Source: an uncultured Verrucomicrobiae bacterium
GTDB lineage: Bacteria > Verrucomicrobiota > Verrucomicrobiia > Chthoniobacterales > UBA10450
NCBI GenBank assembly: GCA_963815455.1
Contig: CAWFGO010000001.1
Span: 1,248,001 to 1,312,000 of the forward strand
Reading direction: 5' to 3'
Length of the DNA: 64,000 nucleotides
The position numbers were made by a program, and so were the translations under genes. The notes beneath the pieces were generated by a model. The model saw only the letters and a list, made by a program, of their open reading frames with translations. It made no database searches and was not told the origin of the DNA. This document shows positions 7,748 to 39,476 of this stretch, in pieces. How positions within the stretch are numbered: the stretch's first letter is position 1; the number at the start of each line of letters is the position of its first letter.

Positions 7748-8368
7748 GTGCTCCTTTCTTCCCCCGACGAGGGCGGCGCTGCGATTGACTTCTTAACATG
7801 CTTTATCGAGGACGAATACGGATTGAGCGCGGTCGATTTCCCCGTGCATACCGTTGCGGACATTGGGGCGAATATTGGCCTCTTCTCAATGGCGGCGCGA
7901 GGGTATTTCCCCACCGCAAGAATCCATTCCTACGAACCAAATCCCCGGGTGCTCGAGCATTCATCAAAGAATGCCGCCGCTGCTGAGTTCACCCTATTCG
8001 CCGAGGCTGTTGGCGCGAGGGCTGGGTATGTCTCGATCGACGAGTCGGGCGGCTCCAACCAAGCCAGGACAATCGCCGCTTCGAAGTCTGGCCATCGGAT
8101 TCCACAAGTCTCGCTCTCTACCGTCGTCGAACGGCTTGGCGGGCGAATTGATTTCGCCAAGATTGATTCCGAAGGAGCTGAGTGGGAGCTATTGGCCGAC
8201 CCTACTGCTTGGCCCGCTATTAAGAACATCCGCATGGAATATCATCTTTGGGGTCGGCGTGTCTTTACGGATGTCGAGCAATCTCTTGGCAGAATTGGGT
8301 TCCAGATTCATCACCATAGTTCAGCTGGCGAATGGGGCACCGTTTGGGCTCGCAACACAAAGGCCTAA
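7748..8368 (+). CDS. FkbM family SAM-dependent methyltransferase (true start probably upstream, ~7622)
   Basis: DIGANIG, YEPNP, KIDSEGAE, MEYH; frame stays open upstream to ~7610 with no ATG. Confidence 0.85.
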   Translation: MLLSSPDEGGAAIDFLTCFIEDEYGLSAVDFPVHTVADIGANIGLFSMAARGYFPTARIHSYEPNPRVLEHSSKNAAAAEFTLFAEAVGARAGYVSIDESGGSNQARTIAASKSGHRIPQVSLSTVVERLGGRIDFAKIDSEGAEWELLADPTAWPAIKNIRMEYHLWGRRVFTDVEQSLGRIGFQIHHHSSAGEWGTVWARNTKA

Positions 8369-20133: not shown

Positions 20134-23100
20134 CTAGGGAATCTTGGATTTTACCAGCGTAACATCGGAGGCGTTAACGACCCCGTTAGCATTCACGTCG
20201 GTGCGGAAGTTGGATCCATCGATGGCCTCTCCCAGCTGAGATTTCACCATGGTCACGTCGGACGAATTGACCACGTCGTTGCCGGTCACATCGCCGATAC
20301 GGAGGTGCATTCGCACGCCTACGTCGCTGATGTTCGAGCCGTTATCGGTGTCGAACAACGCAACGGTGATCGTCTGCACGTCGGTTACGCCGCTAAGATT
20401 AATCGTTACGATGGTACTGGGCGATCCGTCGACGACGAGCGGGCTGCTAGTCACGCTGTCGACCATGCCGGTGCCCGAAGTCACCGCCGCGCCGCTAAAG
20501 GTGACCGTGTCTTCGAAAGTCAGCACGATCTTATAAAGATTAGTCGCTGCTCCGGTACCGCGGCTTTCAATGCCGACCGCGCCCATCAGTGGCAGAGAGA
20601 CATCGAAGTCACCTGCGCCCCCGTGAGTCTTGCGCGAAGCGGCCATGCTGGGATGAACGCCGGGCGCGAGCTCGATCGCGCCGATATCGCTCCCGTCACC
20701 GCCAGCGGCGTTCATGACGGCCGGATCATCAACCGGCCGAGCGAATCCGCGCTGGTCCTCGCCAGTGGCGGTGTAAGCCGGGCCGAACGGACCAATGTCC
20801 TTGCCCTGGTCAATCGCCGGGCTATTGACGAGCGGTGCGTGGGTGAATGTCGGGCCGCCATTGTACTTCAGCGGACCAAGCATCGGGTCGGTATTGATCT
20901 GATCACCGGTTCCAGTGAGGAATCCGCCAAAGTTGTCGCTGCTCAGGTTGAAGCCGAGCGAGCTGACCAGGCTGGTGCCGAGGGCGGAAATGTTCGTCCC
21001 CGAGGCACCGGTGTTGAAGATCGTGTTGCCGACGATCAACGACGCATCCTGGAGGAGGATTGCCGCGCCGCCAGGCGAGTTTTCGGTCAGGGTGCTGTTC
21101 GTGATCGTGACGTTGGCCGTACCGCTGGTGCCAATGGCATTCAGCGCACCACCGCTCGCAGCAGTGTTGCCGCTCAATGTGCTGTTGGTAATGGTCAGCG
21201 TCGCCGGATCCGCTACCGAACCCGGGGCGTCCACATTGGTGGCGTTGACCTGGGCCGCCCGGCTCATTCCGGCAATGGTGCATCCGGTCACGTGCGCGGT
21301 CGCCAACGGGCCGATGACTTCGACGCCATTAGCTCCTACGCCGCTGATCGCGCTACCTGTGACTTCAGCCGTGCTCGAGACATCGGCCGCGGCTGTGCGC
21401 GAATTTTGAACCTTCACTCCGGTCCCGGATTCGACGTTAATCGGCATTCCGTTAACTCTAACCGCGATGGCGTTGGCAGCGCCGGTATACGCGTTGCTGG
21501 TCAGATCAGTCGTACCCACCGGGTTGACCGTCAGGTTGTCGGTAAGATAAACGCCGGCAATCTTGGTCCCGCTCATCGCATTCGTATCATCCAAGGTGAT
21601 TACGTTGCTGGTCGACGTATTGGTCAATTCGATGCCATAGTCGGTGTCGTCGACCGAGTTGTTAGTCAGAGTCGGGCTCACGCCGTTCTGGACGGTCACG
21701 AACGACATGCCGAAGTTGTTTGGCACGGCGCCGGTCTCAGCGGTGACCGAGTTGTTATCGATCAATGCACTGGTGGCGCTATTGAAGTGCAGCCAGTAGA
21801 GAATGCCTCCGGCATAACTGTGGATCTCGTTCCCCGAGATCACCCAGCTGGCCGAACCTTCGCCCGCCGCCGGGGGAATCGCCGCCGAGAAGTTATTCGT
21901 GTGCACGCCAGTCCAGACGCGAGTCATCAGGTTATCAACGACATCCGCGTAGTAACCCGTGCGCAGCGAGACGGCATACCCGAAGTCATAGAAGCCGACA
22001 CTGTCGAACCAGTTCTCGGCTACCAGGTTGGCAAATGACAACCCATCGCCGCGGAAGCCAATGGCCACCCGGGTGATAATGTTGTCGCGGACAACGACGT
22101 GGTGGAAGGCGCCAACTGGCCGCACGCCGTAGCTGGCGTTGGTATCTTCGCCACTTTCCAGAGTTGTTCCGACAAAGCCCGGATCGTCGCCATCGATTTC
22201 GAACCCGTTAATCGTGACATTCGGCATCGAAACCGTGAACACCGCGGTCTGCGCCGCGCCAACTGTGCGCACATATGCCTCGGCCACTCGCGAACCGCTG
22301 CTGCCGGGGATTCCGGCGTTCGGTCCCATAATATTCAACTCCTTGTTCACGTTCGGATTTTCGAAGTAATTACCCGCGTAAACAATCACTGTGCCCGGAT
22401 TAGCGACGCCATTGATACCATCCTGGATCGTGGCAAAAGCGTCGTAACCGATTTCCGTCGCGGGCCCACCAGCATCGGGGTCGACTCCGTTAGGCAAGCC
22501 GGTCCAATCGTCGTCTACGTAGACAATCGCAGCCGGCGGCCGTGCTTCACGCGTTACTACAACCGTGTAGGTCTTGGTGGTCATCGGCGCATGGATGCCC
22601 ATCTCGTCCTGAGCGGATACAACCACCGTGATCGTGTTCATGCCCACGCTGAGATTGATCGGATCACTCGGGGTGCCCGATGCGACCGGCGTTCCGTTAA
22701 CCGTCACCGTTGCCGTCGGGTCCTGGACTGTCGGCGTGACGGTGGTGTTCATGGTCGAGAACGGCACTGTCAGCGTGTAATCGGTCGTGTCTGGATCGAA
22801 CGCGGGCATGATCGCGCCGGCGCTCAGGACCAGGTTCGACAAGTTTGCATTCGAGCTTGGGGCGCGGGTAACGACGACCGTGTAGGTCTTCATGTTGCCG
22901 GCCGGCGCGGTGACAACCGTCGTGATGGTGTTCATCCCAACGTTCAGCGGGATTGGGGCGCTTGCCATACCCGAGGCGACTGGATCGCCGTTGACCGTGA
23001 TCGTAGCATTCGCGTCCGCCGCAGTCGGCGTTTCTGTAATGCTCGTAGTCGAATTCGGGACGCTTGCTGTGTAGCTCGTTATTGCCGGATCGAAGTCCGG

Positions 23101-26100
23101 CGATAACATGCCGTCGCTCAATGTCAGGTTCGACAAATCCGCATTGGTGCTGGCCGCACGGGTGACCGTGACCGTGTAGGTCTTCATCGTAGTACCATCC
23201 TGGGCGGTGACGACCGTGGTAATGGCATTCGGACCCACCGCCAGCGGGATCGAGCCGCTTGGGGTGCCGGATACGACCGGGTTCCCGTTGACGGTTATGG
23301 TCGAGGTGGAGTCGGCCGAGGTTGGAGTTTCAGTAATGCTGGTCGTCGAATTCGGGACCATTGCCGTGTAGCTCGTTATTGCCGGATCGAAGTCCGGTGA
23401 CAACATGCCGTCGCTCAATGTCAGGTTCGAGAGATCGGCGTTGAAGGCCAGCGCCATACCTCCGAATTCATCCGCACCGACGTCAGGCGCAGTGCCTGTT
23501 CCGGCATAGCCCGGGTTGCCCTGACGGATGTCATTATCGTAGTCGTCTGTAATGCCCGCCACGTTAGCCGCCATGCTTTCCAAATGGGTCGCCGTCGCCG
23601 AATTGATGTGCAGGAAGGTTGGGTCCGAACCAGTTGTGCTAAGGAACGGCGGATTCTCCGTGAACGAGGCCGAATCGCGAGAAGCGACCCGAGCCCGGTA
23701 AGCCTGGATGGTCTGATCGGAATTGGTTCCGTCAAAGAAGACGAGGTGCGAAGCACTCGGCGTCCCGGCGTAGAAGTCGTTGTTATTGGAGGTCGGCCCG
23801 TAGTTGGTCAGAGTCGCATTGCTTCTGCGATAGGCTGCTGCTACGCCCGTGCCATTAGCAATGGAGTTGTTCACAACGACGTTGTTGCGCAGATTCAACG
23901 CCGCCGTTGTCGCCGTGCCGCTGGTGGTATGGAAGATCCCCGACGTCGAGAAGTTCGCTCCTCCCATCGCCGCGCTCAGATAAATCGTGTTATAAGACAC
24001 GTTGAGGGTCGACGTCGATGTTGTTGAGGTCAGGTTGATTCCTCTGATCGCATCCGTCGCACTGCTGGTAGACGGAGCCCTCAAATCTCCGATCAGATTG
24101 TCGTAGATATTGAACGTCGTCCCCGAGGAAACGAGAATTCCGTTCACCGTTGCGGTGGCGCCATTCGACTGTAGATCGTAGATCTTGTTCTTGAAGATAT
24201 TCTGGGTCGTCGCCCCGGTCATCTGAATGCCAGTCACCACCGCGGCAGCTCCCGTAGAGGAGAGCCCGCTCACGCTGTTGTTGAAGAAGTTCTGGTTCTG
24301 GCCATCGGAGAAGATGGCCGAGATGCTTCCGGCGCCGCTGATGTTGCTGATGGCATTCCCGCTCACGTTGTTAGCAGCGAACGTGTTGTCGCTAAATCCA
24401 ACGTATAGGATCGATGAAATCGCGCTCGTCCCGCCAGTAATATTGCTGAAGGTGTTGTTGGTAATCGTCTTTCTCGATCCCGGCGTGGTTCCATCGGCGC
24501 TTCTCCATCCGGCGATGCTGGTCGCCCCCGTGAAGGTCATGTTGGAGAAATTGTTCCCGGTGTTTGTCTCTGTGACTGTCGAACCCGACGATCCAAACGC
24601 GTTATAAAACAGCACGGTCCCGCCAACTCCAGTTTTGCTGTAGCCGGTCACAATCGAGTTGTTATTGACGTTGTGAGTCGAATTCGCCGCGTGAGTAACG
24701 CTGTTACCGATCATCGTCACGCTGCCGGTCGTATTCGCGGTAATGTTGGTGATGGTGTTGTTGTTAATGTTCGTCGAACCGGTGAACACCTGGTTGTTCA
24801 GGTAATTATGCGATCCCGACCCAGTGACGTTTTGCACAAAGCCCCTCACATCATTACCCGACATCGTTAGCGTCGCGGTTGCAGCTCCGGCGGCGTTAAC
24901 CAAACCGAAGAAGGCGCCGCTCGACGCCGCACTGTAGGTAAAGGAGTTCGACGTTGCGGTGCCGATGTGGTTGTTGTTCATGTTGATCGCAACACCCACT
25001 GTGGCGGCCTGCTGAACCAGACCCGCCGCCTGGCCTGACGATACGAGCGAGAACCGGCGGATATTATTTCCGTTCATGTTCACCGTCGCGGTCGCTGCAC
25101 CGGCCGTGTTGGTGATAGCGGAAATGCCGCCCGTCGTGGCCGCGGAGAACGTTGCAGCGTTGACCGTCTCAGTCCCGACATCGTTGTTGAGGATATTCAC
25201 CGTATTGACCACAGCGCCCTGATTGGTCACACCGACAAATCCACCAGTAGTGGCAGCGGAGGTATTGCCGCTGACCTCGTTGTTGTTCATGTTCAGGGTT
25301 CCGTAAGGACCGAGGTTGGCCACGCCGAAAATCGTGACCGCGCCCGCGGTCGTAACGGCATTGTTGACAGCCTTATTGCTGTTCAGATTCATCGTCACGT
25401 TGCTCATCGCCCCCGCAGTCGCCGCGGTAGTGATACACTGCATGCCTCCCGCGCCCGCCTGAGTGAACGTAACGGTATTATTGATGACGTTGTTGGTGAT
25501 CGCCCCGACTGGAACCGCGCCGTAGTCGGTCAGAATACCTCGCAATGCCGTAGCCGTATTGAGGCTCGCGCTGATGAACGAGTTATTCGACACGTTGTAG
25601 TTGTTCTCATTCAGAACATACGCGCCGCCGACGATCGTAGTCGGATAGCCCACGTATGCTGTCGCCGCCGGGAGCCCACCGTAATTACTAACGGCGTTGC
25701 CGGTTGCCACCGAGGGACTGTCGATGACGACTGGCCCACCGATATCGTTGCCGACGTCCATGTTGGCCGCTGTCGCCGAGCCGATAAAGATGATGCCGTG
25801 GGCAACATTACTGATCCCGTTGGTATAAACTTTGTTACCGCTAGCCGGACCAGTCGTGTTGTTCGTTACTTCTTCCGCTACCGTAATGTTGGTCGCGCTG
25901 TGACGATTGTTGCTGTAAACGCCGAAGGTGTTCCCGTAGATCTTGTTCAGCGAGATCGTGTTGTTCTGGATCGTGTTGTTCTGCGAACCTTGTGTCAAAG
26001 ACGCGTGAAGCAACGCAACGCCCCATTCGGTCATGTTGTTTGACGCCGGCGTTGTCACGGTGTTGGCCGGGTTTTCCTGCATCGTGAAGTTCTGCAGAGT

Positions 26101-29100
26101 GATCCAGTTGCCGCCGATCAGCTTGAAGATGGCGTCATTCAATGCGCCCGCTACAAGAACGGGCGAGGCAGTAATCGTGCTCGCGTTGCCCTGAATTGTG
26201 ATCGTGTTGGCCGCCGTCCCGCCCTGTTGGGTGATGGCGTAACCGCCGGCGGGAGCTGTTTCGTTTCCGTTCAGCGTAATCACCACTGGATCGGTAATTG
26301 TCGCGGCGTTCAATGCGGTGATCGCGTCGGCTAAACTCGCGTAATCCGGCGCCAGGCCCGAGGCGCCATTGGTTGTTACCGGTCCCGCACGGTGGACCGT
26401 GACCGTATAGGTCTTCATGGTCGTGGTGTCCGCAGCGGTAACAACGGTCGTAATTACGTTATCGCCCACGGCCAGAGCGATCGGATCGCTGGCGTTGCCG
26501 GACACAATCGGGCTGCCGTTAACAGTGATCGTCGCGCCTGCATCTTGCGCGGTCGGCGTAACCGTCGTGCTGGTCGTCGCGTTCGGTACGGTCAGCGTGT
26601 AGCTGATCGTGTCGGGGTCGAACACGGGCATGATCGCACCGGCGCTCAAGACCAAGTCCGATAGATTGGCGTTCGAACTAACCGCGGTCGCACGAGTGAC
26701 GTCAACCGTATAGGTCTTTGTCGTTTGCGGCGTGCGAATGCCCATCTCATCCTGGGCTGACACTACGATGCTGATCATGTTGCTGCCCACGGCGAGATTG
26801 ATCGGGTCGCTCGCCATGCCGGAAACGACCGGCATTCCATTAATCGTCACGGTGGCCGTCGGATCCTGCACGGTTGGAGTCACGGTAATGCTCGAGGTCG
26901 AGTTTGGTACGCTCGCCGCATAACTTGTGGTGTTTGGATCAAACGCCGGCACCAGGGTCCCATCACTCAGAACCAAACTCGAAAGGTTTGCATTCGAACT
27001 CGGCGCGCGCGTGACGGTGACCGTGTAAACTTTCATCGTCGTCGTGTCCTGCGCCGTCACTTTTACGTCCACGGTGTTCATCCCGACGTTCAAAGCGAGT
27101 GCGCCGCTGGTTCCACCGGAGGGGACCGGACTGTACATCCCGCCGTTCACCCGAACCTGAATCGTGGCGTTTGGATCAGCCGCAGTGGGCGTAACCGTCG
27201 TACTCGTCGTGGCATTAGGCACGCTTAGTGTGTAGCTGGTCGTGGCCGGATCGAACGGGGGCGAGAAGGCGCCTGCGCTCAACATCAGGTCGGAGAGGTC
27301 GGCGTTCGCGCTCGCGAGCCGGGTGACGACCACTGTGTAGGTATTCGGTGTCCCCGCATTGGGCTGATCGGCCGAGAACGGTCCGAACTCAGGCGTCACC
27401 ACCACGGTGACGGTATTCATGCCCACATTGAGCGGAATAGGATCGCTGGCCATCCCCGAGGGCACGGGATTGCCGTTGACTGTGACTGAAGCGTTCGAAT
27501 CCTGGACTGTCGGGGTGAATGTGATGCTGTTGGTCGCATTCGATACTGTCTCCGTGTAGCTGGTTATGTCAGGATCGAATGTCTCGTTAAGCGAGCCCAT
27601 TCCGGGCACCAGGTTGGAAAGCTTGTTCGACGCAATTTCGTCCGCGCCTATATCCGGCTTCATTGCGCTGCGGCTATTGCCATCGATGTCAGTCGTGACA
27701 GAGCCGATTGGCGTGCCCGCGTTGGCGGCAGCTACACTATGTGAACTCAAGTGTAGGTCTGTATTGCTTACAAATGGCGCCGCTGTCGTAGTTGCAAGTG
27801 AAGCGTTATCGTTGGTGCCTGCGGCGGAAAGAGTGCTGGAATAGCTGCGGAAGTTGGTCGGGGGCACTACGGCGCCAGGGTTGAAGTTAACCGCGGCGAA
27901 ATCTCCCGACCCGCTCGTGGTGCCTACAACAGCCATTCTGCAGTTCGCGTCGGTCCCTTCGTAATACGCATTATTATTGAGGGTAAGGTTCATTGCGCTC
28001 GTTCCACTCGACGGCAGATTAATTGCAACAAACCTGGTATTACCGCCGCTGGCTCCACCGGTCATTTGGTTCGACAGAACGTTGTCCCGAACATCGCAGC
28101 CGGTCACGGACGTGGCGCTAACCGCCAGGGCTATTGTCATGTTGGTGCTGACCGTACCACCCATGGCTCCGTAAAGATGGACAGAATTACTGTGGACCTG
28201 GTGCCCGGTCCCAGCGTTTAGCCGGATCCCTGATGCACCAAAGCTTGGCCCGAATGCACCTGTTCCTGCGGTTTGATCGTTCTTAACGTTCGCTACGAAA
28301 TTATTGCGAACGATATTGTTGTTGCCGCCGTTGAGGTTGATGCCGACCGCGGGCCAGCTGGCCGTGTTCGTATTGAGGATATTTTGAACATTGTTCTTTT
28401 CAATGGTGATGCCGCCGGTCGTGCCGCTTACCGAAATTCCGCACACCAAAGAGGTCGAACTACTGCCGCCGGACGACATGTTCATCACGGAATTTCCGCT
28501 GATAATGTCGGCGGAATTTGCAATCGTTGACGTGACGTTGATGCCGACGGGCGAAACTGTGCTGGTGCCCGTGTAATTCAACGCCGAGAGGGTGTTCCCC
28601 GATACCGTCGCGTTAATTGTCCCCGTTGCCAGCCAGATCCCAACATCGTTTTCGGCGGTCGCCGCCTCGAAATTGCCGACAGTGTTGTTGCTGACGGTAG
28701 CTCCATTCACGCCCTGCATGTACAGACCGACGTTCCGAATGGCATTCGCGCCGCTCGTATTAAGCGTATTCTGCGTGTAGACAAGATTCGATCCGCCTTG
28801 CGGGGTCGTGCCGCCGGTGGCAAAGACGCCAACGAACGCTTTTTGAACGTCGTTGTTCTGAATCGTGATGTTGGAGAAGAACCCGGCATTTCCCAGGGTC
28901 GTGCCATCCGAAATGACGACGGCGGAGCTCGTCTGCGCCCCGTTGACGATGATGCAATTCTTAAGGGTATCGTCCGTGACTGGCGTTGTCCCGGTTGACC
29001 CGAACAACACAACGCTCGGAGAAGTTGTATTGGTGTTCGTAATCGTGAGGCTGCGGTCTGATCCGCCAACCATGTTAGATCCGTCTATGGTGCAATAACT

Positions 29101-32100
29101 GGCTTTGATCGTAATTAGGGCCCCGCTCGCCACAGAGCCGGTGATCGTCGCAACGACGCCTGGAGCCGGCTTGATCGTAATCGTATTGGCCGCGCTCGAC
29201 CCGGGATTAGCGTTGATCGTAAGCGGGAACGAAACAATCGTCTCTCCCGCGCCGCCTGAATAGCTGGTGTCGGTCAAAATGAAGGTAACCGGTCCGGTCA
29301 TCACTTTGCTGTTCAAGTCAGTGATGGCTGCGGTCAGATCAGCATAAGTCTGTCCGGTGCCGACGTTGAACGAGCCCATGATTGTCCCCAGGATTGTATA
29401 ACTGTTAGGGGTTGTCGGCGGCGTTGACGCGGCCGGCGGATTCGCCGTGAATCCGGATGCACCTGCCGACGGGTTTGATCCCACGTTCGGCGTGCCAGCG
29501 CTGTCTTGGGCAACGACATAGTAGAATACCATGTCGCCAGTCGTCACACCTGAGCCGAAAGTAAATTGATACTGATTGCCGCCGAGCGAGGTCGCTACGG
29601 CTGAATTGTAACTGCCACCATTGATCCTCCAATAAAGGACCGGCAACCCTGCGCCTGAGGTCGGCACGCCGGAAGCGTCGGTAATTGTTGCGGTCAACAT
29701 CCGAGCGCCCGTGCTTGCGGTGTTACCAAACGGCGTATACGAAATTGCCGGCGGACTCAAGTCCAATAGGATTCCAGCGAATTCGTCCGCGCCAACATCC
29801 GGTGTGCTGGCGTTGCGCGTGTCACCGTCAAAGTCATCCGTAATCCCCGCGATTGGGGCAGCGCCGCTTTCCAGCTGCGTAGGAACAGTTGTATTGATGT
29901 GCAGGAAGTTCGCGCTCGAGCCGGTTGTGCTTAAGAACGGCGGATTCTCGCTAAAGGATGCCGAGTCCCTGGGGGCAATGGTTCCCGCAGTGAACACTCC
30001 GTTTTTATAATCGGTGATCGATTGCCCGGTGCTTGTGCCATCAAAGTAAACAACGTTGGTTGCACTGGGTGTTCCCGCGTAAAAATCATTATTGTTGGAA
30101 GTGCTCCCGTAGTTCGCAAGAGTGCCGGCCGTTCCTGCGCTGCGGCGATAAGCAACTGTCAGCCCGGCCCCATTTTGGACCGAAGTGTTGACAATGATGT
30201 TGTTTCTTAGGTTGAGCGTTGAGGTTGTTGCCGTCGAGCTCGCCAGGGTTGAGATACCCGACGAACCAAACCCGGCGCCCGAGGTCGTGTTATTAACGTA
30301 TACCGTGTTGTAATACACGTTGTAGTTCGACGTGCTCGCCGAGCCGGTGATGTTTATCCCAATGACCGCATTCGATCCGGTCGCGGCTGGCGCGGTCAAA
30401 TTACCTATCAGATTATTGGCAAGCGTCACCGTGCTCGAAGCGGTTGAGTTCGTGATGGCAACACCGCTGACTACAGATCCGGCCACGAGTACCGCTAAGA
30501 TCGTAGATCTTGTTCTTCGAAAGAACGGCACCCGGCGCGGCGGTCGAAATGCCGATCACACTTGTCCCGCCCGAAATGATCGGATCGATGGTGTTTCCTG
30601 AAACGGTTATGGTCGCGGCATTTGATGATCCTATCAGCAAAGCCGTGATGGAGTTGCCGGTGGTGATGCCCGTGATCGTGTTATTGTTTACGGTTGTGCC
30701 GGCGCCGCTGAAGTTGACACTCATCGGCACGACCGTTCCCGCGCCGGTGGTAATGTTACTAAACGTGTTTCCGTTAATGGTCTTAACCGGCGCGCCGCCG
30801 TCAGTGTTAAGGATACCATTAAAAGCCGAAGCGCCGGTCAGGGTGATGTTTGAAAAATTGTTGTTGCTATTCACCATCGTGGATCCGGCCACAGATGAGG
30901 CGTTGGTCGAATAAACCGTGGTCGTCCCGGCACCCGTCCGGGTAAAACCCGTAACGATTGAATTTCCGCTGAGGGACATTGACGCGCCGGAGATCAACGA
31001 CGGGGCAAACGAAAAGAAAGTTATCGCGCCGGTCGTGTTCACCGACATGTTGGTGAACGTGTTGTTGTTAATATTTTGAACCAGCGGATTGCCGCCTTGG
31101 GAAATGAAAGTGATCGTCCCCGACGCGGCTACCGTATGACCGAAGGTATTGAAATCGTTGTTGTTAATACTGTTGGTAGTAGTCGCATTGACACTGGTGC
31201 TCGGCATGGTGATACCGACGATGGCGCCCGCTGCCACGGCGCTACGCAAAGAGATACTGTTGTTATTGATCGTCTGAGTGAGCGTACCCGTCGGCGCAAC
31301 ACTCGATGCCGGTATTTGAATACCGTTCAATGTTCCGGAGGTCATGCCGCCGTTGGAACTGTTCACCGTATTGCGTGAAATATTGAAGTTCTTCGTGTTG
31401 CGAACGAGAATTCCGTTCACCGTACCGGAAACGTTGGCGTACCCAGAAAATGTCGCTGTCGTGCCGAAGTTGGTGATGCTGTTTCCGGTTGGCGCCGTCG
31501 TGCCGCCAATGTCGGCAGTCGTGTTTTGGTCAGCTGCTGCCGTTGGTCCGATGTGAACGATACCCATATTCACGTCGGTGATGTTATTGCCGTAAATTTT
31601 CAGGTTGTCATTGCCGCCGGCTGCGCCTGTGGCAGTAGCGGAAGTGGTGACTGCGGTCGCGCTGTGAGTGGAGTTGCTGTAAATGCCGAACGTATTCTGA
31701 TACGTACGGTCGAGATCGATCGTGTTGTTTTGAATCGTAATGTTCTGAGAGCCGTCAGTCGTGGTCACATAAAGCAGGGCCACGCCCCACTCGGTCATGT
31801 TGTTGGTTCCAGCCACCGTGATTGTGTTCGCCGGATTCTCCAACATTGTGAAGTTTTGGATGGTGACCCAGTCCGCGCCAATCAGTTTGAAGATGCCGTC
31901 ATTGAGAGCGCCGGAGGTTTGTGGAGTCGGCGCGGTGATGGTGTTGCCGCCGCCGTCGAAAACGATCGGGTTTGCCGCGCTTGCGCTGGTCAGCACTGCC
32001 GATCCCGCCCCGCCGATGACATAACCGCCCAAGGGAGCCGTTTCCGATATACCCAGGTTGAATGTCACGCCGCCCGCGCCGACGCCCTGTGCGTTCAGAT

Positions 32101-32299
32101 CCGCAATGGCTGCCGCAAGCGTGGCGTAATCGCCGGGAATATTCTTTGTGCCGGTGAGCTGGGCCGACGCCAGATCGCTCAGCAGGAGCGAACAAAAAAG
32201 AGCCGCGAAATAGATCGGGGCTCTTTGCGGAACGCGTTTTGTTAGGCGTGTGCGCGTGTTCGCGGCACAAGTCGTCTGAGGATTTGCTTTCGTTTTCAT
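20134..32299 (-). CDS. Giant secreted surface protein (~4054 aa after repairing a +1 frameshift near 30487): beta-helix blocks, 7 cadherin-like beta-sandwich repeats, choice-of-anchor-Q-like motif, C-terminal SRKTHG domain plus dockerin type I
   Basis: ORFs 30413-32479 and 20134-30531 join at KNKIYDLSGT/VAGSVVSG; start MKTK with hydrophobic signal ...LASA; NADLSNL..FDP..TSY repeats; DPMLGPL..NGGPT..H...SPAID..DQRG..DIGA; GDVTGNDVVNSSD...DVNANGVVNASD. Confidence 0.88.
22547..23442 (-). repeat. Three tandem cadherin-like beta-sandwich repeats (~99 aa each)
   Basis: 297-bp period; ~65-bp near-identical DNA at 23069 and 23366. Confidence 0.88.
26387..27630 (-). repeat. Four tandem cadherin-like beta-sandwich repeats
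   Basis: Repeated N(A)xLSxL.L..G...P.FDP.T.SY...TYTV.VTR. Confidence 0.88.
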
Positions 32300-32312
32300 G
32301 CGGAAGAGGAGC

Positions 32313-32502
32313 CTTTCTAAGGCTAGTGCGGTCGCCCCGGACGCACCGATTGTGCGCGTCCGCAACGTGGCGAGACGGAATGGATGGCTGCGGACTTCAG
32401 ATACTGTTGGCTTAATACAGGCCGGATATTTTGGTTCCAGCCGGGTATCTGTTGTGAGGCTTTGCCCGTAAAAGGTCAAGACAAAAGCAGCCGACTAACA
32501 AA
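32313..32502 (-). promoter_or_regulatory. Conserved promoter plus structured 5' leader, copy 1
   Basis: Alignable to 38879-39072; TTGACC -35-like box, two hairpins, invariant ATCTGAAGTCC and CTTAGAAAG on the sense strand. Confidence 0.75.
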
Positions 32503-32720
32503 GAAAAGGCGCAATAGAAATCTGTATTTCCCTGTGGCGATTATCGCCACACGACGCCGCGTTGGAGCCTCGGCAAGGGCGGAATTTTCCAAGTTAGCAT
32601 AGACCGCGGATTACGCGGATATCGCTGATGTTTACAGAAGGCAACCCTCCACGGCGGATAAACTGCGATAAATAAGGACTGGATTGTTCTGGAAAAAGCT
32701 TCTCGACCGAGTGACGAGTC

Positions 32721-32771
32721 TCGGAGGGACGTGCTTCCTCACGTCCAGGACGCGCAGAAGCGCGTCCCTCC
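32721..32771. repeat. REP-like element family C (CGGAGGGACGTG...GTCCCTCC)
   Basis: Related copies at 34628-34675 and 39324-39394. Confidence 0.75.
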
Positions 32772-32784
32772 AAGCCCTCAACTC

Positions 32785-33456
32785 TCAACTCTCAGCTCGC
32801 GCTGGGGCCGAATGGACCCAGGCAATCGCATACTGCAGCAGCGCAGCCGCGTCCGGAAGTTTCAGTTTCTCTTTGACCCGCGCCCGATAGGTGTCGACCG
32901 TGCTCGCGTCGATCCCCATCTCATCGGCAATCTGACGCGAATTGAACCCGCGCCCGATCAACCCGAACACCTGCAGTTCGCGATCAGTCAGAGATTCGAC
33001 CCCCGCGACGGTTTCACCCGGCCTCGAATGGACGATCCGCGCCGCGAGTCGCTGGGCCAGCGTCGGACTCAAGTACATCTCACCCGCAAGCACCGATCGA
33101 ATTGCCGTGACAATCATCTTGCTCGCTTCCTGCTTGTTCACGTAACCCAGCGCCCCGGCCTGAATCGCGCGCTCGGCCCAGACCGTTTCATCGAACATGC
33201 TAAGGACCAACACGGCCACGCCCCTGAAGGCTGACCGGATTTGCTTTATTAAATCCAGACCGCTGGAGTGTTTTAACCCAAGATCGACAATGGCCAGATC
33301 GGGCCTGGTCGAGCCGATCAATTCCAGCGCTTGAGGCGCATCGTCGGCCTGACCGCATACCGCCAGATCCTGTTCCTCGGCGATGAGCTCGGCCAATCGC
33401 TCGCGCACGACCGGATGATCGTCCACAAGGATAATTCGCGCCGGTTGTTGTTTCAC
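32785..33456 (-). CDS. NarL/FixJ family response regulator (REC plus LuxR HTH)
   Basis: LVDDHPVVR, AIVDL, GALGYVNK, LTDRELQVF...TVDTYRARVKEKL. Confidence 0.95.
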   Translation of the reverse strand: MKQQPARIILVDDHPVVRERLAELIAEEQDLAVCGQADDAPQALELIGSTRPDLAIVDLGLKHSSGLDLIKQIRSAFRGVAVLVLSMFDETVWAERAIQAGALGYVNKQEASKMIVTAIRSVLAGEMYLSPTLAQRLAARIVHSRPGETVAGVESLTDRELQVFGLIGRGFNSRQIADEMGIDASTVDTYRARVKEKLKLPDAAALLQYAIAWVHSAPARAES

Positions 33457-34517
33457 AGGGATTTTGCGCCGTTGTGTTGATCCAACTCAACCATGATCAG
33501 AGTGCCGCTTCCGGGAGCCCGGCGACCAATGGTGAGTGTACCGCCGATGCAGCGAGCCCGATAATCCATGATTTGTAATCCCATGCCGCTCCGCCTTTGC
33601 GACGGCTGAGGAATTCCGATGCCGTCGTCGGCGATCGTCAGCTTTAACTCTCCGTTACGTTCCCGTAGCGTCATAATAATCTCTCTGGCATGCCCGTGTT
33701 TAACCGCATTGTTGGCGGCTTCTTGAGCGATCCGGTACAAGTGAATGGCGATGCCCGGGTCGATCGCGCTCGCTGGTCCATCGTAAACGACACGGCATTC
33801 GATCTTGAACGAGTCGCTCATCAGCTGACAGAGCTCCTCCAAGGACCGGCATAAGCCTTCGGCCCGGAGTGTCGCCGGGAACAAACCGCGGGCCACGTTG
33901 CGGACTTCTGTTAAAGCTCGATCGACGAGGCCGGTGATCTCGCGGGCCTGGACTGCTTGCGGGAGCGATTCCTGCTCAAGGCGGCGGGCAAGCAAATCGA
34001 GACTGCAGGCTATGCCGACAAGATCCTGCGCTACTTCGTCATGCAGGTCCTGGCCAAGCCGCTCGCGCTCCGATTCGCTGATGTTAATGATGTCGTGCTC
34101 GAGTCGCTGGCGAACGGTAATTTCGCTCGTTAATGCGGCGCTCTGCTCGCGAACAGTTCCTTCCAGGTTCGAGGTCAAGGCTCGGATCTTCGAAAGCAAC
34201 AGACTAACGATCACAAAGAATCCCAGGCGCACCAGGGCGTTCCAATATTCAATCCAGGGTTGCGAATAACGCACTCCTTGTAACCGTTCCAGAGCGAACC
34301 AGACGATGGCGCTCAGAATCGAAACCCAAATGCCGCAGACCCGGCCTCCGAACCAGGCCGCCAGTCCTACAGCGGCAAGATATGAGATGGAAAAGGATAT
34401 CTCGGTGCCGGTGAAATAATCGAGGCCGGCTATGCCGGCCAGGACCATCAGCGCTAGGGCGAGTGCGCCAAAGGTGCTTCCCGGCCTCAGATAATTGACG
34501 ATCGTTGCGCGAATCAT
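33453..34517 (-). CDS. Membrane sensor histidine kinase (HisKA_3, NarX/UhpB-like)
   Basis: N-terminal TM region, ERERLGQDLHD, RIAQEAANNAVKHG, DDGIG, GMGL..M..RA; overlaps the regulator start by 4 bp. Confidence 0.93.
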   Translation of the reverse strand: MIRATIVNYLRPGSTFGALALALMVLAGIAGLDYFTGTEISFSISYLAAVGLAAWFGGRVCGIWVSILSAIVWFALERLQGVRYSQPWIEYWNALVRLGFFVIVSLLLSKIRALTSNLEGTVREQSAALTSEITVRQRLEHDIINISESERERLGQDLHDEVAQDLVGIACSLDLLARRLEQESLPQAVQAREITGLVDRALTEVRNVARGLFPATLRAEGLCRSLEELCQLMSDSFKIECRVVYDGPASAIDPGIAIHLYRIAQEAANNAVKHGHAREIIMTLRERNGELKLTIADDGIGIPQPSQRRSGMGLQIMDYRARCIGGTLTIGRRAPGSGTLIMVELDQHNGAKSL

Positions 34518-34627
34518 CGCTCGTTACGAGCTCCCCCGGGGCAAGTGGTGTCCCCCGCTGCCGTGAGCGATTTCACGCTCGCGCAGTAGTTCCGTCAAGC
34601 CGGAATCTCGCGGTTTTCAACCCTCAA

Positions 34628-34712
34628 CGGAGGGACGTGCCTCGTAGGGAGGTGATTCCTCACGTCCGGGACGCACATTCTTCGTCTTGCGGCCGACACG
34701 GCCGCCTCTACA
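34628..34712. repeat. Composite REP-like element (family C plus family D GCGGCCGACACGGCCGCCTCTACA)
   Basis: Family D also at 39453-39476 and 56748-56771. Confidence 0.75.
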
Positions 34713-34730
34713 TCGAACATCAAATGGCGA

Positions 34731-34778
34731 AAAGAGCATTCCCGCAGCCAGGGACCCAGCCATCCCCGGCCACGGGAA
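34731..34778 (-). terminator. Putative intrinsic terminator after the 1356-aa gene
   Basis: Sense strand TTCCCGTGGCCGGGGA-loop-TCCCTGGCTGCGGGAA followed by TGCTCTTTT. Confidence 0.6.
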
Positions 34779-34790
34779 CAACATCCGTTG

Positions 34791-37700
34791 TTAGGGAGGG
34801 CTCTGCGATTTCACCAGCGACACATCGGCGCTGCTGATCGAGCCGTTCACGTTCACATCGCTCCGGAAGGTTGTGCCATCCACCGTTTGGCCAAGTCGCG
34901 ATTTGGTCTGGGTGATATCGGACGAATCGACCTGGGTATCTCCATTGGTATCGCCAAGGAGCACGCGCATTGGAATCGTGACATCGTTCGAAACGCCAGC
35001 GCTGGGCGTGTTCACCCCGTTTAGCCTGACATTTATGACCTGGGCATTAGTAACATTGGTGAGCGGTATCGTGACCGTGTTTCCGCTAATGGAAACCGTT
35101 CCGCTCATGTCGCAGGTTCCGCCGGTACCGACGCAGCCTGTGCCCGCCGTCAGTTCAGCTTGAGGAGTGCCGGTGATCGCGACCGGTCCATCGAACGTGA
35201 CGACGATGGTGTGATCGTTCGTCAGGCCGCCCGAGCGGCATTCGATGCCGGGGCTTCCGGTCAACGGGAGATCGACGTTGAAGGTCCCAGCGCCGCCATG
35301 GGTCTTGGCTGAGACAGCACTTACAACCATGGGCGGTGTCGGGGTAGGCGTCGGGCAAGGCAGCGTGCTTTGACCCGTAACCAAAATATCGTCAACCGCC
35401 CAGTACCAATCCCAGCCCGATTGATACCGGAAGCGAACCATTAAGTTCGGCTGGCCCGCGTATGCATTGAGATTAATCGATGCGTTGGCGAAGGCGGCGG
35501 CCGATCCGACAGTCGCAGTATTGTAGGTTTGAACTGTAGTCCAGGTTGTGCCGCCATCAGTCGAAATGCCCACAGTCGCCACCGTGGTCGCGAGCCACCT
35601 CAGGTAATGCTTAAAGGTGAGCGTCACGCTGCTATATCCGGCTGCGCTGAAGGAAGGTGAAATCAGGCTCGTATCTCCAGTTACGCCACTGCCAGCCATG
35701 TCCGAATTGGCCATGATGAACATGGTGCCCGAATTACCAGTGAATGTATCGGTGCTATAGACGTACCCGGTGGGCCGGAGTGTCCAAATTACCAAACTCG
35801 GATTCGTGCCGCCGACGGAATTGTTGACTGCCGTCCATGAGCCGAAGCCGCCCTCTAAGTCCTGGCTCAAGAGAGTATCAAGCGATCCGGGTTGTCCGAC
35901 GACGCTAATGGAAGCCGAGGCCATGCCGCTACCCGCCCCGGGGCAGCCATTGGTGATGCTAAATGAGGCCGTGTTGTTCAACGTCGAGCCGCACGTATCA
36001 ACCGTTGTCGCACTAACGACGTGTGCCTGCGTCATGGCATTACCAGCAAGGGTGCTGGGGCTGTATTGCAAGCTCTGGCTCGGCGGAGCGCCAACAACGG
36101 ACCAGCCGGGATCGGTCGCGCCGGCATCGATCATCCAGTCAACTCCGGGTGCGGCCGGCAAGTTGTCCGACACCGCGAGCCCCAAGGCGGTGTTCGCGGT
36201 CGTATTAGTGAGCTTCACAACAAATCCGACCTGGTTGCCGTAATTGACCGTCGCTGCATCGGCGAGCTTGCTGATGGTGACGCTGGCAATAGCCGGTCCG
36301 CCGTAGGAGGTCTGCTCGTCTGCGCCAATGTCAGGCGTGCACGGCTGGCGCATGTCGTTATCAAAGTCGGTGGTGATGCCGGTGATCGGCGTAGCCATGG
36401 CGATGCAGGGGCTGCCTGGCATGAGGTGCAGATTGACCATCGTCGCGTCTCCGTTCGCATTAACAAACAACGAATCAGTGGATATGCTGTTCGCATCCTG
36501 CCCGCTGGCCGTTTGCCAATTGGCGAGGGTAGTTTGATCGATTCCGCCGATTAAGCCGACAAAACCGCCGGTTCCAGACGCATACAGGTCATTATAATTG
36601 GAAGTGAACCCGGGGCCGCTCAGCGCGATGGCGTAATGCTTGCCGGTTCCAACGCCGTTGCTGCGGGCGTTCCAAAAGATATTGTCGATGTACGAGCGAG
36701 CGCCGGAAGTCACGTTGCTGACAAAGCCGAACGTGTTGCTGGCATCCGCCACGCCGGTGCCGCCGAGATAAACGCTGTTAAAATACAGATTATTGGCTCC
36801 GGCAATCTCAAACATTCCATAAATCTGGTAGCCGGTCGAAATCGAGTTCCCCGCTGCATCAATGCCCAAACTAACCATGTTGTTCTTATAAGTGCCCGTG
36901 CCCGCTACCGGAAGAATGCCGACCAACTGACACGTTGTCGCAGTCGAGGTGATCGAGAGCGAATGCACAAAATTCCGTTCGACCACGTTCGCCGTGGCCG
37001 ACGGGAAGCTGCCGTAAAGCGCATAAATAGAATTACTGGCGGTGCCCGAGTTGTTGCTGAGAGAATGAATGACGTTTTGTGAAATGATATTTGGGCCACC
37101 CGTGGTTGACGTTGAGCTCAAGATCATACCGCTGACGACGATCGTGCTGGCCAGATTGGAATTACCCGAAATATTTTGGATGGTATTTCCGGTTGCGTGC
37201 AAGACTCCCAGGCTATTCTGAACGGCATACATGGCATAACCCCCAACCAGAGAATCGGTGATACCACCGGCCCCGCTCCCTCCTATCTGGTTGTTGTTAA
37301 GCGTGGCGGTGGCAGCTGAAGATGTATTGAACAAAACCGCTCTGAACCCTCCGGTCCCTGTCCCCGTCCCGTTGATCGTTATCGCTCCGATCCTGTTATT
37401 CGAAATCGTATTCGAGCTTGAGGTAAAGTCGTAGATCGCGGTCATCCCGCCGGTCGAGCTCTCTGTGAAGGTAATCGTTGATGACCCGTCCAGGCTCCCG
37501 ATTTGGTTGCCGGTGATGTTCCCGACGTCCCATCGGCCTGCCGCGATGTAGATGCCACGGAATGCTGATCCGCTGCCGGTTCCTGTGCTGGCCGTGCTCT
37601 GGACGATCCCCGAAATCGTATTGTTCTGAATACTCGACCCCGTTACCGTGCTGGAGCTGGTCAGATTCAACCCAACGAATATGTTGGAGCCGCCACTGAT

Positions 37701-38861
37701 CGATGTGGTTCCGGTCCCGTTGGCCGCACCGAAGCCGATTGTATTTCCGGTAATGGTAGCGGTCCCGGCTCCGGTCCCAATTGAGCAAAGGATGCCGGAA
37801 TAAGTCGCACTCACCGTGAAGGTGCGCGGCGCGGTCTGGTAAATTCGGTTATTGGAGACGGTCGCGTTCGTCGTGTTGGCCTGGAGGCTGATACCCGCCG
37901 CGGTACTGACCGCCGCCTGGAAGAAGTCAAAGATATTATTGTTATCGATGATATTGCCGGTGTTGTTGTTCGGGCTGGCCGTTCCAAGCGACATCACACC
38001 TTTGGTCGGCAGATTGGCGCCGGCCGGACCGATGTTGTTATTCGAAATCGTGTTGCTGCTATTGGCCCCACCCGTCGAGGTGCTGATCAGGATGTTGCCG
38101 CCTGCCACGGTAGTTGACGCCGTTGACGAACCGAGCACGGAGCAGTTCGTGATCGTATTGTTTTGTGCGCCGTTGATGAGGCGGATTGTGCTGGTGCCGG
38201 CGGTGGCCGCAACCGTCGTGTTCGAAATCGTCAAGGAATTGCCGCCCGTGTTTAAGCCGTCGATCGTGACGTTGGTCGCGCCATTCAGATTGATCAACGG
38301 ACTGCCGGCTGTAACCGCGGCGGAGACTGTCCTCGCGCCCGATGGCGTGATCGTAACCGACGTGTACCCACCCGCCCCGGTCAAAGACGCCCCGCCTACC
38401 GGCTCAGTGGTGTCGTTACAGATGCCGATCATGACGGTGCCGGTGTGCGTTCCGGCATTAATCGCGGTAAAAGCGTCTGCGAGCGTGGCGTAATCGGCAT
38501 CGTTGCCGCTGTTGGTCGCTTCCACCCGCACGTTGCCGGCGCCGCAGGTCACCACTCTCGGCGTCCGCGGAGCATCAGACAGGCGCTTGATTGCCGCGTT
38601 CGCGCTGGCTTGAAATGCGGGTTGTTGACCGGCGACCGCGGAAGCTTTTTGCGCCTCCATTTCCGCAGCCTCTTTGGCAACTTGAGTCGCTTTGGCAGTA
38701 GCATCAATCACTGGAGCCATCGCGGGCGCATTGATTGGATGTATCGCCGGCTTCGCCTTAGCGGTCGCGTACACGGTGACAAACGATGCGGCAAGCAATG
38801 CCACGATGGCAACACTGCTGAGCATTAGTTTCAGATTTGGCTGTAGGAACTTTGTTTTCAT
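34791..38861 (-). CDS. Large secreted protein (1356 aa): beta-helix, DUF11-like Ig domain, cleaved-adhesin/choice-of-anchor-J-like domain, SAKTHG domain plus dockerin type I
   Basis: MKTK signal peptide; NNxI-rich repeats; TPDIGADE; ISK.AD..TV..G....F...LTN; LISPSF..RFRY..WAVDDI; GDTNGDTQVDSSD...DVNVNGSISSAD. Confidence 0.9.
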   Translation of the reverse strand: MKTKFLQPNLKLMLSSVAIVALLAASFVTVYATAKAKPAIHPINAPAMAPVIDATAKATQVAKEAAEMEAQKASAVAGQQPAFQASANAAIKRLSDAPRTPRVVTCGAGNVRVEATNSGNDADYATLADAFTAINAGTHTGTVMIGICNDTTEPVGGASLTGAGGYTSVTITPSGARTVSAAVTAGSPLINLNGATNVTIDGLNTGGNSLTISNTTVAATAGTSTIRLINGAQNNTITNCSVLGSSTASTTVAGGNILISTSTGGANSSNTISNNNIGPAGANLPTKGVMSLGTASPNNNTGNIIDNNNIFDFFQAAVSTAAGISLQANTTNATVSNNRIYQTAPRTFTVSATYSGILCSIGTGAGTATITGNTIGFGAANGTGTTSISGGSNIFVGLNLTSSSTVTGSSIQNNTISGIVQSTASTGTGSGSAFRGIYIAAGRWDVGNITGNQIGSLDGSSTITFTESSTGGMTAIYDFTSSSNTISNNRIGAITINGTGTGTGGFRAVLFNTSSAATATLNNNQIGGSGAGGITDSLVGGYAMYAVQNSLGVLHATGNTIQNISGNSNLASTIVVSGMILSSTSTTGGPNIISQNVIHSLSNNSGTASNSIYALYGSFPSATANVVERNFVHSLSITSTATTCQLVGILPVAGTGTYKNNMVSLGIDAAGNSISTGYQIYGMFEIAGANNLYFNSVYLGGTGVADASNTFGFVSNVTSGARSYIDNIFWNARSNGVGTGKHYAIALSGPGFTSNYNDLYASGTGGFVGLIGGIDQTTLANWQTASGQDANSISTDSLFVNANGDATMVNLHLMPGSPCIAMATPITGITTDFDNDMRQPCTPDIGADEQTSYGGPAIASVTISKLADAATVNYGNQVGFVVKLTNTTANTALGLAVSDNLPAAPGVDWMIDAGATDPGWSVVGAPPSQSLQYSPSTLAGNAMTQAHVVSATTVDTCGSTLNNTASFSITNGCPGAGSGMASASISVVGQPGSLDTLLSQDLEGGFGSWTAVNNSVGGTNPSLVIWTLRPTGYVYSTDTFTGNSGTMFIMANSDMAGSGVTGDTSLISPSFSAAGYSSVTLTFKHYLRWLATTVATVGISTDGGTTWTTVQTYNTATVGSAAAFANASINLNAYAGQPNLMVRFRYQSGWDWYWAVDDILVTGQSTLPCPTPTPTPPMVVSAVSAKTHGGAGTFNVDLPLTGSPGIECRSGGLTNDHTIVVTFDGPVAITGTPQAELTAGTGCVGTGGTCDMSGTVSISGNTVTIPLTNVTNAQVINVRLNGVNTPSAGVSNDVTIPMRVLLGDTNGDTQVDSSDITQTKSRLGQTVDGTTFRSDVNVNGSISSADVSLVKSQSPP

Positions 38862-38878
38862 AGACGAGGTCTCTCTAA

Positions 38879-39072
38879 CTTTCTAAGACAGGAGGGTTTG
38901 CCGCAGGCACGTCAATTCAGCGCGCCCAAGCAGCGATACGCAATGGAGGATTGAGGACTTCAGATGCTTTATTCGGATTAAACAGGCAGAAAGAAATCTC
39001 TCTGCCCGGCGCACGTTTGTGGGCTGTTTTGCCTTTAAATGTCAAGACAAATGCGCTCGCTATGACTAACAA
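38879..39072 (-). promoter_or_regulatory. Conserved promoter plus structured 5' leader, copy 2
   Basis: Alignable to 32313-32502; TTGACA -35 box; same motifs and hairpin positions. Confidence 0.75.
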
Positions 39073-39245: not shown

Positions 39246-39476
39246 CAACTCTCAACTCTCAACCTTCAACTTCTTCCTACAGAAGAATGCCGCGGATGAC
39301 GCAGATGTCGCCGATTACACCACTCGGAGGGACGTGATTCTTCACGTCCAGGACGCGACCACTACGGCAGTTAGACTTCAGCGCATCCCTCCGAACCTCA
39401 AACATCCGACGTGGTGTAGTGGTGGGCGTGCCGCCCATACATTCTTCGTCTCGCGGCCGACATGGCCGCCTCTACA
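39246..39476. repeat. Cluster of REP-like elements (CTCAACT heptamers, families C and D)
   Basis: CAACTCTCAACTCTCAAC (also near 32777), CGGAGGGACGTG, GCGGCCGACATGGCCGCCTCTACA. Confidence 0.7.

Follow-up and report, generated by a model that had tools for sequence, protein, structure and literature searches.

A stabilising stem-loop lies at the 5' end of ompA-type 5' untranslated regions (5' UTRs), and riboswitches lie in the 5' UTR after the promoter; in the orphan and second-messenger classes (c-di-GMP-I/II, c-di-AMP) found in leaders of secreted-protein genes, unpaired motifs are conserved and stems vary. The leaders of long surface genes under RfaH/ops or UpxY/opsX control contain a hairpin and, after it, a short conserved element (cited portions of PMC11685472 and PMC7593976), which in Bacteroides opsX sites, according to the cited portion of PMC11685472, are a pause hairpin and a short non-template element. 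An extended Shine-Dalgarno (SD) sequence is described for rpsU of the SD-poor Bacteroidota (cited portion of PMC10798248). Gene regulation in the Chthoniobacterales, almost all of which are uncultured, is nearly undescribed, and our literature search, with supplements and subscription-journal motif catalogues outside its scope, found nothing on riboswitches or gene regulation in this order or on RfaH/ops in Verrucomicrobia. Here we analyse a 64,000-nt window (contig CAWFGO010000001.1, positions 1,248,001 to 1,312,000) from an uncultured member of the order, in which two genes for dockerin-tailed secreted proteins, genes A and B, are preceded by similar upstream regions, copies A and B (Table 1). 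The original prediction, made from the sequence letters, had presented these regions as one ~200-nt structured leader and a candidate new cis-regulatory RNA.

The upstream regions of genes A and B are a genuine shared control region, part promoter DNA and part folded RNA. When the whole 3.6-Mb genome (G000; G and L numbers denote other genomes and loci compared) was searched with copy A using nhmmer, copy B was recovered at E=4.1e-11 and no other match fell below E=4.5; the two regions are true homologues and can be aligned along their whole length. Local alignment of the parts following the promoter scored 73; the highest score that any of 1495 other non-coding upstream regions reached was 41, and shuffled sequences gave at most 30. 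Similarity of the coding sequences ends after the first codons, as had been claimed (128 identities and 42 gap positions in a 240-nt global alignment), and every motif that had been listed was found on the minus strand, in place and in order. A two-copy profile detected no third copy in the genome (best other E=0.43). About 45 genes share a dockerin-type C-terminal tail, which may be a sorting signal, and the profile misses the leaders of the others; the element does precede both dockerin-tailed genes of the window, but it is not a feature of the dockerin family.

The 5' quarter of the region, ~55 nt, is promoter DNA of a family-wide class, and the ~200 nt are not one RNA. A TTGTTA box lies 15-20 nt from the -35 element in both copies, in both copies of a tandem gene pair in genome G013 and before the G002 orthologue of gene B, and is probably an activator or UP-like site. 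The genome contains 13 instances of the promoter pattern TTGAC-N17-TCA(A/C)AA, compared with 0-5 at 15 other spacings; copy A matches it exactly and copy B with one extra spacer base and C for T. Seven of the 13 sites, copy A included, lie within ~180 nt of a secreted-protein gene, four are one repeated, insertion-sequence-like end, one is in coding DNA, and for one no gene was called in the vicinity. Separately, the usual TTGAC-TAnnnT class is enriched as well. In other genera the same box pair precedes related secreted-protein genes, including those for FecR-domain and PEP-CTERM proteins. Extending the search to 354 other genomes, the promoter architecture of the two window copies was found in both G013 copies and at three unrelated-looking sites (control matches, two). 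A PEP-CTERM-wide promoter was considered and rejected, the strict pattern being present in only 2 of the clear PEP-CTERM-like genes among 43 regular-expression candidates. Among the matches listed, the ATG lies only 10, 11 or 14 nt past the -10 in L140, L136 and L129, which bounds the start site and would make hairpin 1 the first element of the mRNA; we infer that transcription starts within ~10 nt of the -10. The best candidate reader of this class would be a 284-amino-acid RpoS-like sigma-70 paralogue (G000:C1:459485-460339), in which the -35 helix is the same as in the primary sigma and region 2.4 is changed, an assignment that relies on the established promoter contacts of sigma-70. Two paralogous genes of G002 (L138 and L139; G002:C9:92670, 99888) have the same promoter class and a common hairpin leader of their own, unlike that of the window.

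In the transcribed part, ~150 nt, a linker separates hairpin 1 from hairpin 2, and a further small hairpin covers CTTAGAAAG. All seven hairpin 1 pairs of copy A are kept in copy B, two of them through double changes; hairpin 2, whose local stability is lower (z -1.2 in A and -2.5 in B), keeps 12 of its 14 pairs. Over the 21 stem pairs of copy A there are 14 substitutions, yet 19 pairs are kept in B, including three double changes, a retention to which neutral simulation assigns optimistic p values of 2e-4 at the observed 37% transitions and 0.018 at 80%. Transitions make up 12 of the 14 changes in stems and 8 of the 35 outside them (Fisher p=8e-5). The earlier statement that the stems differ in sequence and still pair is upheld, and comparison of the two copies supports a transcribed leader with stems under selection. 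In copy A, a competing helix and a hairpin covering the ribosome site are predicted; in copy B the competing helix is weak. Forced pairing of the linker to the SD costs 13.6 and 5 kcal/mol.

Not all of the invariant motifs are aptamer-like, as had been supposed, since CTTAGAAAG complements the 16S rRNA 3' tail. This word occurs four times in the genome, once as the reverse complement of the 16S 3' end, and the leaders hold 11- and 9-nt complements to the end of the rRNA gene. An SD sequence is defined by complementarity to the mature 16S 3' end at an aligned spacing of 5-13 nt. With a long 16S tail, the SD duplexes of copies A (-12.7 kcal/mol) and B (-11.5 kcal/mol) rank in the top 1.4% and 3%, respectively, of 2110 ATG genes, whereas with a short tail the former is unremarkable and the latter ordinary. 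SD words are rare before these 2110 genes (gene calls of this analysis), a scarcity likewise reported for Verrucomicrobiales in the cited portions of PMC10798248 and PMC10783764. The window leaders resemble Bacteroidota rpsU, as portrayed in the cited portion of PMC10798248, in having a rare long complement to the 16S tail, of about -12 kcal/mol, in an SD-poor lineage; unlike rpsU, the window genes are not ribosomal and their SD likeness hinges on a long 16S end. Many start codons throughout the genome are preceded by a C-rich context.

We lean, by no wide measure, towards a duplicated, lineage-restricted cassette that would co-regulate two surface-protein genes through an alternative-sigma promoter, a stabilising or pausing 5' hairpin and a gated ribosome site. 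An alternative sigma factor would start transcription at the TTGAC-N17/18-(T/C)CACAA motif present in both copies. Hairpin 1, at the mRNA 5' end as the short leaders of other class members suggest, would then shield the transcript from 5'-end-dependent decay or pause the polymerase. Hairpins 2 and 3, which can pair in both copies, may set access to the unusually long SD, and the conserved linker could tune this access as a site for protein binding or helix switching. Such a leader is like the ompA type in having a strong hairpin a few nucleotides from the predicted 5' end of a surface-protein mRNA, and unlike it in also having a conserved linker, another hairpin and a long SD that is hidden. 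Several observations weigh against this reading. The full copies number only two, and their stems and register were set by eye, which leaves the p values optimistic, and pair retention would give p=0.125 if all changes were transitions. Folding of the whole UTR is unremarkable (z -1.5 for A, -1.15 for B). The strong SD requires a longer-than-usual 16S tail, its spacing in copy B is long, and the SD-like word of G013 copy A lies 27 nt from the ATG. The promoter of copy B departs from the class in its spacer and first -10 base, and the family-wide excess of the promoter pattern (54 matches against 30 for reversed-pattern controls in 18 family genomes, unpublished G008 included) is modest and includes insertion-sequence-like ends.

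Outside the window the full leader was not recovered. Family-level samples comprised 354 genomes for patterns, 150 for models, and 260 and 200 for motif and domain counts (the unpublished G245 is among the positive genomes in the last two). Two patterns found no full homologue in the 354 genomes, where the linker pattern had three matches, in coding or unrelated contexts. Model R1, a weak test as it is nearly structure-free, gave 10 weak matches of at most 23 bits in the 150 genomes (self-match, 150) and none in five selected genomes. BLAST of copy A against 60 relatives returned two short chance matches; among 79 loci, from various phyla, that hold homologues of gene A domains the best score was 34 (null maximum 39, true pair 101); and a metagenome pattern scan produced two matches, both devoid of promoter and hairpins. 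These searches lend no support to a widespread RNA family. In keeping with the prediction, in which no known riboswitch had been recognised, Rfam 15 has no match in the window at gathering threshold and none on either leader at E<=10. Like riboswitches, the leader lies in the 5' UTR after a promoter, given the predicted start, and it shares with the orphan and second-messenger classes a position before secreted-protein genes, conserved unpaired motifs and variable stems. Unlike them, it exists in two copies only, shows no cross-genus aptamer conservation, and selection is seen between A and B alone. Its best reading is that of an ordinary structured 5' UTR and not a conserved ligand-binding aptamer; the pair is a modest local case, a new instance of such a UTR.

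Partial relatives are nevertheless found. Gene B has domain homologues in 36 of 200 family genomes. In the G013 tandem pair, whose genes are module-shuffled and not clean orthologues, both upstream regions retain the promoter together with the box; G013 copy A also has a hairpin after the -10 and a weakened linker (score 37, p=0.003 against window copy A), while the other copy has no linker. G002 holds a clean orthologue of B (70% identity over 1372 amino acids) that has kept the box upstream and the final bases ahead of the ATG; the intervening leader is unrelated (score 20, null 19). Gene conversion between neighbouring genes was dropped as a candidate: the G002 pair is mutually similar because both genes carry a family motif of ~95 nt, described below. 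From one genus to another, these modular surface genes change the cassette that controls them at the 5' end. Homologous giant genes at L191, L194, L204, L172, L178, L193, L196 and L015 show a third upstream architecture, with conserved boxes that presumably resemble NarL-family sites, the word TTTTGGGGA and a divergent response regulator.

The ~95-nt motif of the relatives is a stronger candidate for a new RNA than the window leaders. With one copy as the query, it matches 121 of 260 family genomes, often at least three times per genome, and a strictly filtered model search of 149 genomes from the remaining families of the phylum found none; G000 carries one copy outside the window. It directly follows a promoter, of at least two types. 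Twenty of 33 downstream open reading frames match Pfam, 19 of them being of extracellular types (collagen-like, S74-chaperone fibres, propellers, proteases), and 13 have no match. Rfam, two tRNAs aside, has no match to the motif at gathering threshold (14 loci) or at E<=1 (18 loci). In 36 sequences it forms an extended hairpin of 27 pairs in which 93.1% of the cells are paired. Eleven pairs show double changes, as opposed to 2.7 in shuffles (0 of 500 as high), a count resting on only 14 double-change cells, on sequences that are mostly related top BLAST hits and on a structure derived from the same data. The outermost helix appears in the minimum-energy fold of only 2 of 31 single cores, and in 13 of the 31 it is a segment further downstream that the inner strand pairs with, which in these modelled folds hints at a switch. 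The claim of an undescribed regulatory RNA ahead of such genes holds for the relatives, with a different motif. We tentatively suggest, at rather less than even odds, that the motif is an undescribed riboswitch-like class for secreted surface proteins of this Chthoniobacterales family; it could also be a mobile repeat. Two testable family-level features emerge, namely the secreted-protein promoter class and this multi-copy conserved leader motif absent from Rfam. One gene behind the motif (L241:3-1370, minus strand) matches the thiol-activated cytolysin family in Pfam, and in G002 (C8:101647-126485) four clustered surface-protein genes each have a diverged copy.

The window leaders are not members of this motif: two covariance models with filters off gave no match at E<=10, two profile hidden Markov models gave none either, and the outer helices cannot form in copy A or B. 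It is unlikely, although of the alternatives weighed here this one survives best, that they are a remodelled form of the motif that still senses its signal, hairpin 2 being the remnant of the inner hairpin. The closest homologues of both genes do carry the motif in their 5' UTRs, already decayed before these giant genes: L015 (39.5 bits) and G211 (25 bits) for gene A, neither in the training set, and the G002 orthologue of B (52 bits, in the training set). The motif was probably ancestral in the leader slot. Both kinds of leader directly follow a promoter before homologous genes, and in each a CGT(A/C)TC-like word precedes an inner hairpin, which is similar in the two; the window leaders differ in promoter class. 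Scored for similarity to seven copies of the motif, copy B comes 5th among 2881 upstream regions, but the signal fades with 12 diverged copies against the fairer non-coding background (B p=0.09, A p=0.21). A broader scenario likewise seems unlikely, in which the motif would be a riboswitch-like class that probably answers a lifestyle signal, for instance a nucleotide second messenger, while the leaders of the window would be rewired descendants under an alternative sigma and a gated ribosome site.

Still less probable is a neutral leftover of a duplicated 5' region, with only promoter and ribosome site constrained and the hairpins incidental. Restriction of the leader to one genome, the non-significant whole-UTR z scores, the loss of most elements other than the promoter from the G013 copies and the unrelated leader of the true orthologue of B would fit such a history. 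Pair retention and the transition excess are however confined to the stems, linker identity between A and B (35/48) equals promoter identity (27/36), and the G013 copy A hairpin after the -10 also speaks against it.

We give little credence to an antitermination loading site for an RfaH-like NusG paralogue, in which hairpin 1 would pause the polymerase and the linker would act as an ops-like element, both being needed to transcribe the 12-kb gene A. The position in the leader of a long surface gene, the order of hairpin and short conserved element, and the presence of a second NusG-family gene (G000:C5:32158-32784; best match RfaH TIGR01955, 78.7 bits) parallel RfaH/ops and UpxY/opsX, and notably the opsX arrangement, as set out in the cited portions of PMC11685472 and PMC7593976. 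Yet the gene falls under the family cut-off of 144.5 and is unlinked to the locus, and the element precedes no other long gene or operon of the genome. The ops pattern is a familiar one; neither it, within 3 mismatches, nor the GG-N8-YG pause consensus occurs in the leaders, contrary to the ops-like signal that had been proposed, and neither hairpin 1 was called on the coding strand by a terminator scan (G+C hairpin plus U tract). The stand-alone RfaH-like NusG paralogue adjoins PEP-CTERM genes and a tRNA.

Hardly credible, finally, is a second promoter of the extracytoplasmic function (ECF) type in the linker (TGAAGT-N16-CGT), making the invariant motifs DNA elements and leaving hairpin 1 outside the main transcript: the 16-nt spacing is identical in A and B, the genome has 14 sigma-70 region-2 matches and the linker presumably resembles SigW/SigM promoters, but this spacing is not enriched in the genome or in upstream regions and G013 copy A has lost the -10 portion.

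Table 1. Features of the two loci and related sites (window positions unless a genome or locus is given).
Feature	Position	Strand	Remarks
Gene A	20134..32299	-	Giant secreted surface protein, ~4050 amino acids if one gene (Pfam)
Copy A hairpin 3	32310..32324	-	Encloses CTTAGAAAG(G), extended SD-like, 12 nt before ATG
Copy A hairpin 2	32332..32373	-	Centroid fold; 5' strand can pair with linker instead (minimum-free-energy alternative)
Copy A linker	32372..32402	-	ATCTGAAGTCC, 7 nt, TCCATT.CGT.TC
Copy A hairpin 1	32420..32442	-	Few nt past predicted transcription start; -13.9 kcal/mol, z -3.9
Copy A promoter	32452..32480	-	-35 CTTGAC, -10 TCACAA
Copy A upstream TTGTTA(G) box	32493..32501	-	DNA-level
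LuxR/NarL-type response regulator and HisKA_3 sensor kinase	32785..34517	-	Between genes A and B (Pfam)
Terminator-like hairpin	34737-34780		3' of gene B
Gene B	34791..38861	-	1356-amino-acid secreted protein; DUF11, choice-of-anchor J and dockerin domains
Copy B CTTAGAAAG	38879..38887	-	17 nt before ATG, in weak hairpin
Copy B hairpin 2	38900..38934	-	-19.9 kcal/mol
Copy B linker	38936..38965	-	
Copy B hairpin 1	38983..39008	-	-17.7 kcal/mol, z -4.1
Copy B promoter	39017..39046	-	-35 CTTGAC, -10 CCACAA; spacer has one extra base relative to A
Copy B upstream TTGTTAGTC box	39064..39072	-	
Promoter-class sites	G000:C1:651316, 658765, 795439; C3:75265, 248460, 438892; L106, L109, L115, L126-L140		
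Family-motif copies	G000:C1:419272-419365 (L215, L246)	-	
Family-motif copies	L216-L245; L188:3252-3348, 7752-7853; L015:2765-2863		

Gene A encodes seven cadherin-like domains, a beta-helix and a C-terminal dockerin (Pfam). A one-base indel near 30487 splits its reading frame, and is likely an assembly or sequencing error, because the homologues in L196, L014 and L015 are uninterrupted across the site and several other genes of the assembly are broken by single bases likewise (e.g. G000:C1:857405 and C3:743826). A programmed frameshift was ruled out, the homologues being continuous and a slippery run absent. Short repeats at 32720-32800 and 39250-39400, upstream of both leaders, are similar to repetitive extragenic palindromic (REP) elements and lie outside the leader, since two of their words are found 18 and 8 times genome-wide.

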